IMG/VR virus record: IMGVR_UViG_2706794698_000006
Source of the DNA: a virus
Lineage: Duplodnaviria > Heunggongvirae > Uroviricota > Caudoviricetes
Length of the DNA stretch: 4,349 bases
Strand: one strand, 5' to 3'
A program made the position numbers and the translations under genes. The notes beneath the pieces are model-generated. The model did no database searches. It saw only the letters and a list, made by a program, of their open reading frames with translations, and was not told where the DNA came from. This document shows, in pieces, positions 1-267 of this stretch. How positions within the stretch are numbered: position 1 is the first letter of the stretch; each line of letters opens with the position of its first letter.

Positions 1-35
1 GAACAGGAGGGACAGCTGATAGAAACAGAAGCCAC
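1..35 (-). CDS. insA: IS1 InsA, N-terminal fragment (first 11 codons; gene runs off the window edge)
   Basis: Minus-strand GTG at 35..33 followed by GCT TCT GTT TCT ATC AGC TGT CCC TCC TGT gives (M)ASVSISCPSC, matching the remembered InsA N-terminus. Position inside IS1 is as expected (about 54 nt from the IRL tip). Confidence 0.7.
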   Translation of the reverse strand, partial: MASVSISCPSC

Positions 36-90
36 TGGAGCACCTCAAAAACACCATCATACACTAAATCAGTAAGTTGGCAGCATCACC
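1..90 (-). mobile_element. IS1 insertion sequence, left-terminal 90 bp (element continues beyond the window start); terminal inverted repeat IRL at 68..90
   Basis: Reverse complement of 1..90 reads GGTGATGCTGCCAACTTACTGATTTAGTGTATGATGGTGTTTTTGAGGTGCTCCAGTGGCTTCTGTTTCTATCAGCTGTCCCTCCTGTTC, which I recognise as the first 90 nt of IS1 including its left inverted repeat GGTGATGCTGCCAACTTACTGAT. Recognition is from memory; no search was run. Flank at 91 onward differs from the Tn9/pACYC184 context. Confidence 0.85.
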
Positions 91-200
91 GTTTTAACGT
101 TACTAATAAATCGTGAAACAATCTCCTCATTTGTTAGTATTTTCGCCTGAGCACAGCAAGAGGTTAATATTGCAACCGTCATTAAAAATGGCTTTATCAC
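91..200 (-). pseudogene. 5' fragment of a putative lipoprotein gene, interrupted by IS1 after 36 codons
   Basis: Minus-strand GTG at 200..198 opens a frame reading (M)IKPFLMTVAILTSCCAQAKILTNEEIVSRFISNVKT, then crosses into IS1 at 90 and stops 6 codons later. Basic n-region (K), hydrophobic core PFLMTVAILTS and lipobox-like L-T-S-C. A 36-codon open frame in 67% AT sequence is unlikely by chance. Product not recognised. Confidence 0.4.
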
Positions 201-208
201 AAAACAAA

Positions 209-212
209 CTCC
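209..212 (-). promoter_or_regulatory. Shine-Dalgarno (GGAG) for the putative lipoprotein ORF
   Basis: Minus strand reads aatGGAGtttgttttGTG; GGAG lies 8 nt upstream of the GTG at 200..198. Confidence 0.35.
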
Positions 213-267
213 ATTGTTAGCATGTTACGCGATAATTTTGCCTCATCTTTCACCACAAAAAAAGAAC

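Follow-up and report, generated by a model that had tools for sequence, protein, structure and literature searches.

An IS1-split accessory gene for an exported protein in a decayed phiP27-like prophage

Morons for exported proteins are known from temperate phages, and those whose products are located in the cell envelope have time and again proved to act in superinfection exclusion or host interaction. The accessory gene analysed here is an uncharacterised newcomer among them. Like the genes for lambda Bor, phi80 and N15 Cor, and T5 Llp, it is a non-essential mobile gene near tail genes that encodes a small exported protein, and the member described here has a lipobox-like L-T-S-C. Its product differs, however, in being larger (about 140 aa when mature), in belonging to a family whose lipobox is not conserved, and in having no sequence similarity to these proteins, the full-length protein matching no Pfam-A family at E≤10; the initial annotation, which had found no likeness to Bor or Cor, was borne out on this point. 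The gene also resembles tail-module morons of the HK97 gp15 type. HK97 gp15 is an inner-membrane protein that acts in superinfection exclusion. The gene here is likewise an accessory gene of deviating composition that adjoins the tape measure gene of a temperate phage, and a role for it in the lysogen envelope would be plausible by analogy; its product has no sequence relation to gp15, and we know of no exclusion phenotype for the protein family.

The lysozyme inhibitors MliC and PliC offer a structural comparison, as they form one beta-barrel family with both lipidated and soluble members. The protein described here shares with them a predicted eight-stranded antiparallel periplasmic beta-barrel, and its family likewise has apparently soluble and possibly lipidated versions. 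The identity to PliC/MliC is, however, only 8-10%, the family here adds an N-terminal helix and a C57-C150 pair, and neither the full-length protein nor the family members matched the Pfam MliC family. Since scores as good or better are obtained with avidins, GID4 and de novo designed barrels, this likeness is at the level of the fold only. As judged from sequence, the protein belongs to none of the Bor, Cor and PliC/MliC families, though it may work like one of them.

IS1 inactivation is ordinary in Shigella-type genomes, and the window (the whole 4,349-nt stretch of DNA analysed) adds another example of a gene inactivated by IS1 in a degraded prophage of the Shigella type. As in other IS1 insertional pseudogenes of Shigella and E. 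coli prophage remnants, a complete 768-bp IS1 with the canonical 9-bp duplication lies in an AT-rich target, and the prophage likewise carries IS600, IS4 and a second IS1. The mechanism is no different here, the only oddity being a head-to-tail IS1 pair in one sister assembly. Taken as a whole, the locus is in our view, and with high confidence, best explained as an IS1-split cargo gene for an exported protein in a decayed phiP27-like prophage.

The IS1 junction and the disrupted reading frame

The first 90 nt of the window (1..90, minus strand) are the terminal 90 nt of IS1 at its IRL, insA-proximal end, and the element continues past the window's left edge. These 90 nt are 100% identical, in reverse orientation, to IS1 ends in phage P1 and other records. 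The initial annotation had the IS1 left end abutting position 91, which was correct on both counts, since the element ends at 90 and the end present is the insA-proximal IRL. Immediately beyond it, positions 91..99 are one copy of a 9-bp target-site duplication (GTTTTAACG on the plus strand, CGTTAAAAC on the gene strand), which is also where the 5' stub of the disrupted accessory gene meets the element. This stub (91..200, minus strand) begins at a GTG start codon (198-200), 8 nt upstream of which is a GGAG Shine-Dalgarno sequence (window 209-212). An AT-rich leader (201..267, minus strand; GC 0.343) separates the accessory gene from the stop codon of the tape measure gene. The GC content of 91-267 is 0.345 versus 0.52-0.53 in the window's tail genes, in agreement with the AT-richness remarked on initially.

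The native part of the reading frame comprises 110 nt, or 36 codons and 2 nt, and encodes the signal peptide (residues 1-14 or 1-19), followed by the initial 18-22 residues of the mature protein. Codon 37, whose third base is the first base of IS1, still specifies Thr, and the result is a 43-aa fusion ORF (69..200, minus strand) of 37 native residues and VMLPTY from the IS1 end, with a TGA at 69-71. The minus-strand frame that had been described as starting at 200 and open up to the junction is indeed open, but it starts with GTG and not ATG, and it runs six codons into IS1. A 768-bp IS1 thus transposed into codon 37 of the 160-codon accessory gene, duplicating 9 bp (CGTTAAAAC). After such a simple insertion, CGTTAAAAC-ATCTGCAGATAATGAC... 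would come next when reading leftward past IS1, and the 5' stub would yield the signal peptide and about 20 residues fused to the IRL end of the element.

A look-up of the exact 43-aa fusion product returned two NCBI assemblies with the same junction, L004 (GCA_000281815.1) and L005 (GCA_000268045.1). The same 43-aa ORF is annotated in both, and each is 100% identical to the window over 1-2147. According to a listing in PMC5447701, L005 (AKNC) is Shigella sonnei 3226-85. In L004 the IS1 is exactly 768 bp long, has CGTTAAAAC on both sides and is followed directly by the remaining 373 nt of the gene, while in L005 CGTTAAAAC is found at the outer ends of an IS1 pair and the gene remainder follows directly after the pair. 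The DDE_Tnp_IS1 transposase is carried by the IS1 in both assemblies. The 9-mer CGTTAAAAC occurs once only in the intact gene of L001, the E. coli copy to which the stub is identical. The target duplication that had been predicted for the far end of the element, from the nucleotides at 91..99, is therefore present in both L004 and L005. The window ends inside IS1, and the far junction is seen only in these two near-identical assemblies and not in the window's own genome. The accessory gene here is a pseudogene split by IS1, because its 3' part (the remaining 123 codons) has neither a start codon nor a signal peptide.

IS1-mediated adjacent deletions are well known, and the 90/91 junction might in principle be the scar of such a deletion or rearrangement, in which case the window's genome would have lost the rest of the gene. 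The window does start inside IS1, with the far end out of sight, and one of the sister assemblies has an unusual tandem IS1 pair at the same site. However, both of the assemblies that are identical to the window over 1-2147 keep the gene remainder together with a perfect 9-bp duplication, and we consider a deletion scar very improbable when compared with the simple insertion described above. A search for the exact 28-nt junction pattern gave 0 matches in the GTDB representative genomes, likely because that collection files S. sonnei under E. coli.

The IS1 pair in L005 (4881-6424 of AKNC01000076.1) comprises two complete IS1 copies arranged head-to-tail as IRR - TACATCGG - IRL, with an 8-bp spacer, and the copies differ at two positions (69 and 643). 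The pair could be a real tandem, formed for example when an IS1 circle or dimer junction recombined with the copy already in place, or else an artefact of the assembly.

The intact gene as mobile cargo

We used megablast to compare window 91-330 with 5,426 complete E. coli genomes, 33 of which gave a match. The whole query was covered in 11 of the 33, at 96-100% identity and with the copy in L001 being 100% identical, while in the other 22 the match was limited to the 3' end of the tape measure gene. The uninterrupted homologue that the initial annotation had proposed to look for is therefore present, as an intact 160-aa gene, in 11 complete E. coli genomes. The intact gene is 483 nt long, its product is annotated as "hypothetical protein" and begins with the 37 native residues of the window ORF; at the nucleotide level, the stub at 91..200 is identical to the first 110 nt of the gene at L001 3628-4110 (WP_000594909.1). 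In these genomes the gene belongs to a phiP27-like prophage, where its neighbours are the tape measure gene on one side and the Mu N-like DNA circularization gene on the other.

Several lines of evidence indicate that the gene is real. The full-length protein matched phrog_5586, a family listed as of unknown function, with an E-value of 9.7e-89 and with residues 1-160 on profile positions 1-161 of 161. Homologues were found at 25-74% identity, a word-indexed search giving nine clusters and an exhaustive search of 1.84 billion representatives with a HMMER profile giving 19 at E≤1e-3, and a homologue was present in one of 50,697 phage records. Comparison of the E. coli, Yersinia and phage vB_EcoM-720R4 genes by the Nei-Gojobori method gave dN/dS values of 0.09-0.28. 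The frame in the window is short, has a GTG start and lies in AT-rich DNA, as would a chance open frame of 36 codons in spacer DNA. That explanation is refuted by the identity of the frame to the 5' end of a RefSeq-annotated gene of 160 aa, the full-length PHROG match, the homologues, the dN/dS values and a confident structural model (see below), and we give it practically no weight. The initial annotation had listed three observations that would speak against its reading, namely that the rest of the ORF was missing beyond IS1, that no intact homologue existed, or that the frame was open by chance. None of the three was made: the 373-nt remainder is in place in the sister assemblies, 11 genomes have the intact gene, and the dN/dS values are those given above.

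Scans of the full-length protein against NCBIfam and PADLOC gave no match, and when 13 family members were scanned against Pfam at E≤1, nothing relevant came up, only noise at E>0.1. A literature search with the protein accessions and the PHROG number found no paper.

The intact gene is mobile cargo (a moron) and not a tail component, as is evident from its patchy presence in colinear prophages, its low GC, its own terminator and the location of its distant relatives elsewhere. In phiP27 itself (L003) the gene is absent and there is only a 15-nt gap between the tape measure and DNA circularization genes, and the same 15-nt gap without the gene is found in E. coli ATCC 43886 (L011). Where the gene is present, the insert is 596 bp long and has a GC content of 0.37, versus 0.55 and 0.52 in the flanking genes. 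Directly after the stop codon there is an intrinsic terminator with a 10-bp stem (5 GC pairs) and a T run (L001 3622-3600, minus strand). A promoter of its own is another classical feature of a moron, but a consensus scan of the 67-nt leader detected no sigma-70-type site, which leaves independent expression of the gene in the lysogen putative, and an alignment of the leaders of three lineages showed no conserved -35/-10 pair, the leader being poorly conserved between lineages. With intact copies in 11 E. coli genomes and none in phiP27, the proposal that IS1 had inserted into a moron gene immediately downstream of the tape measure gene was upheld.

The slot occupied in the E. coli and Shigella prophages is also the one in which the gene is found in a Yersinia enterocolitica prophage, in a metagenomic contig and in phage vB_EcoM-720R4, and a tail-associated role could also fit this shared position. 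An alternative to a moron is therefore a regular accessory of the Mu/phiP27-type tail module, such as a helper in assembly or injection, that is inherited vertically and has been lost from some phages. While the occupation of one slot in these four places and the lack of a detectable promoter of its own would suit such an accessory, it would not be expected to be missing from phiP27 and 22 of the 33 related prophages of E. coli though the flanks are 94-98% identical, to differ from those flanks in GC, to have its own terminator, or to have a homologue in just one of the 50,697 phage records. Its Sec signal peptide would also be unexpected for a tail protein assembled in the cytoplasm, and its distant relatives lie outside any tail module, beside toxin-antitoxin and partition genes. 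We therefore rate a tail-module accessory as improbable and treat the gene as a moron.

The relatives at 25% identity are on phage-plasmid-like contigs, beside IncFII RepA, ParA, and HigBA-like or MazEF modules. In the Logan contigs L008 and L009, which hold such relatives, the gene lies between replication/partition genes and toxin-antitoxin pairs (Gp49/HTH, MazE/PemK), and both contigs also carry cI-like repressors. L008 and L009 are likely phage-plasmids.

Signal peptide, predicted fold and possible role

The signal peptide of the disrupted gene, MIKPFLMTVAILTSC, fits the PROSITE-type lipobox pattern. The lipobox region is FLMTVAILTSC (residues 5-15); its Cys15 falls within the range of 15-35 that the pattern permits, and the n-region contains Lys3. 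Four residues past the lipobox there is also a signal peptidase I site, A-Q-A/K (AQA/K20; the slash marks the cleavage point). All full-length relatives have signal peptides, but only the E. coli/Shigella and Yersinia members have the lipobox Cys; the orthologue in Yersinia, at 74% identity, has kept L-I-S-C-C. Eight distant relatives with a complete N-terminus (P0003, P0010, P0013, P0014, P0020, P0023, P0026, and P0028) lack the Cys, and their signal peptides end in A-x-A/K, aligned with the AQA/K of the protein here. Examples of such sites among the relatives are LALA/KD, VSA/KD, VFA/KK, ALA/KA, and AMA/KA. In P0022 there is a Cys within the signal peptide, yet not in a canonical lipobox. 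The lipoprotein signal peptide that was proposed initially is therefore correct with regard to the lipobox pattern, but the absence of the Cys from eight relatives means that the label of lipoprotein is not established.

Because A-x-A/K sites without a Cys are found in most relatives, export is a property of the family and lipidation is not. We infer that the family is periplasmic and exported via Sec and signal peptidase I, and that it was ancestrally soluble and cleaved at A-x-A/K. The E. coli/Shigella/Yersinia clade has an L-x-S-C lipobox in addition, and there is perhaps an even chance that the member here is anchored to the outer membrane as a lipoprotein; at similar odds, cleavage at AQA/K20 would make it a soluble protein of the periplasm. 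We are similarly divided over the fuller proposal that the intact product is a true lipoprotein, processed by Lgt and LspA at L-T-S/C15 and acting at the outer membrane like Cor, Llp or Bor. The match of residues 5-15 to the PROSITE lipobox, with Cys15 and Lys3 placed as required, argues for lipidation, as do the retention of L-I-S-C-C in Yersinia and the precedent of MliC/PliC for lipidated and soluble members in one beta-barrel family; sorting to the outer membrane would then follow from residue +2 not being Asp. On the other hand, Cys15 is missing from the eight distant relatives, whose signal peptidase I sites align with AQA/K, and the signal peptide is short before the lipobox (14 residues). 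Where the other members of a family use signal peptidase I sites, a lipobox that is formally good in a single sequence can be misleading.

In the Yersinia enterocolitica homologue (L006 5970-6020), the called start gives MMLISCC, whose n-region has no charge. With ATGAAAAAACC... (MKKPIYL), which lies upstream, the signal peptide would be normal, but the two are one base out of frame. Either a frameshift or a sequencing error is present in this Yersinia copy.

Two cysteines of the mature part, C57 (in a C-P-x-P-S-A-S-G motif) and C150, are conserved across the family. An AlphaFold2 run with a shallow alignment of eight sequences had a pLDDT of 40.7 and was discarded. A second run, with the 25%-identity relatives added, had a pLDDT of 80.3 and a pTM of 0.75 and gave a helix at residues 24-41 followed by eight beta-strands. 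The model suggests that the mature protein is an eight-stranded antiparallel, calycin-like beta-barrel after a short N-terminal helix. In it, C57 follows strand 1, C150 is within strand 8, and strands 1 and 8 are neighbours in the closed barrel, and C57-C150 is a probable barrel-closing periplasmic disulfide.

Foldseek searches with the model against the PDB and BFVD gave no match at E≤0.001, with TM-scores at or below about 0.4, so we assign a fold class only and claim no functional family. The barrels listed beside the model include MoaF-like and D-aminopeptidase domains, avidins, de novo designed barrels, GID4, Cap15, and a T6SS immunity protein, and a phage "putative lysozyme inhibitor" was among the top BFVD matches (E 0.013). 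A profile search of PDB sequences gave non-significant matches only (E≥0.19), and those to the PapF pilin and a Na/Ca exchanger were rejected.

The protein is likely not a part of the virion. We tentatively suggest that the intact product may be a cell-envelope binding or inhibitor protein of the lysogen, which might for example keep superinfecting phages from crossing the envelope or inhibit a muralytic enzyme. Any such function has been lost in the present genome. An envelope guard of this kind could bind a muralytic or tape-measure component of incoming tails, mask a receptor, or inhibit the host lysozyme. Rather more doubtful is the broader proposal that PHROG 5586 as a whole is an unrecognised class of phage and phage-plasmid periplasmic beta-barrels, lipid-anchored in the present clade, that guard the envelope of the lysogen. 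The intact family is rare, mobile cargo of temperate phages and phage-plasmids, is under purifying selection and encodes exported proteins that are predicted to be eight-stranded beta-barrels. Because of the precedent set by the envelope morons, this family is a cheap candidate for a phenotype screen. If its members do guard the envelope, the decay of prophage and defence in Shigella sonnei would include the loss of this gene to IS1.

The surrounding prophage

The remainder of the window is a block of tail genes on the minus strand. The leader of the accessory gene adjoins the stop codon (268-270) of a phiP27-type tail tape measure gene, of which the 3' 1880 nt are present (268..2147) with 98.2% identity to phiP27 L47; in L004 this gene has a PhageMin_Tail domain. 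A run of 253 N (2148..2400) then hides the start of this gene together with most of the gene for the tail assembly chaperone. Each of the four close relatives (L001, L002, L004, and L005) has 473 nt in place of the 253 N; the run is thus not length-preserving, and gene lengths are not to be inferred from coordinates across it. Beyond the run are ORFs for the tail tube (2417..2773, minus strand; 118 aa) and the tail sheath (2773..4269, minus strand; 498 aa), which in L004 belong to the Tail_tube and Phage_sheath Pfam families, respectively.

The homology to phiP27 ends at 4288. From 4289 to the end of the window (4289..4349, minus strand), 20 nt upstream of the sheath start, the sequence is an end of IS600 (IS3 family), with 98.5% identity to annotated IS600 copies, and in L004 ORFs with HTH_Tnp_1 and rve domains adjoin the sheath gene. 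The IS600 end takes the place of the upstream, head-proximal genes of the prophage. The tail block of the window is bracketed by IS elements on both sides (IS1 and IS600).

The prophage is a decayed, defective phiP27-like remnant. As further evidence of this, a second IS1, with the 9-bp target-site duplication TGCGCCCCC, splits its baseplate J/gp47 gene (at about 15285-16052 in L004 and about 10831-11597 in L005). In L005 this second IS1 is 767 bp long and its transposase ORF is broken. An IS4 is situated at the edge of the prophage in L004, where the remnant lies (L004 1-4000) directly downstream of rluD and bamD (yfiO), behind the IS4. This chromosomal context differs from the yecE site of phiP27.
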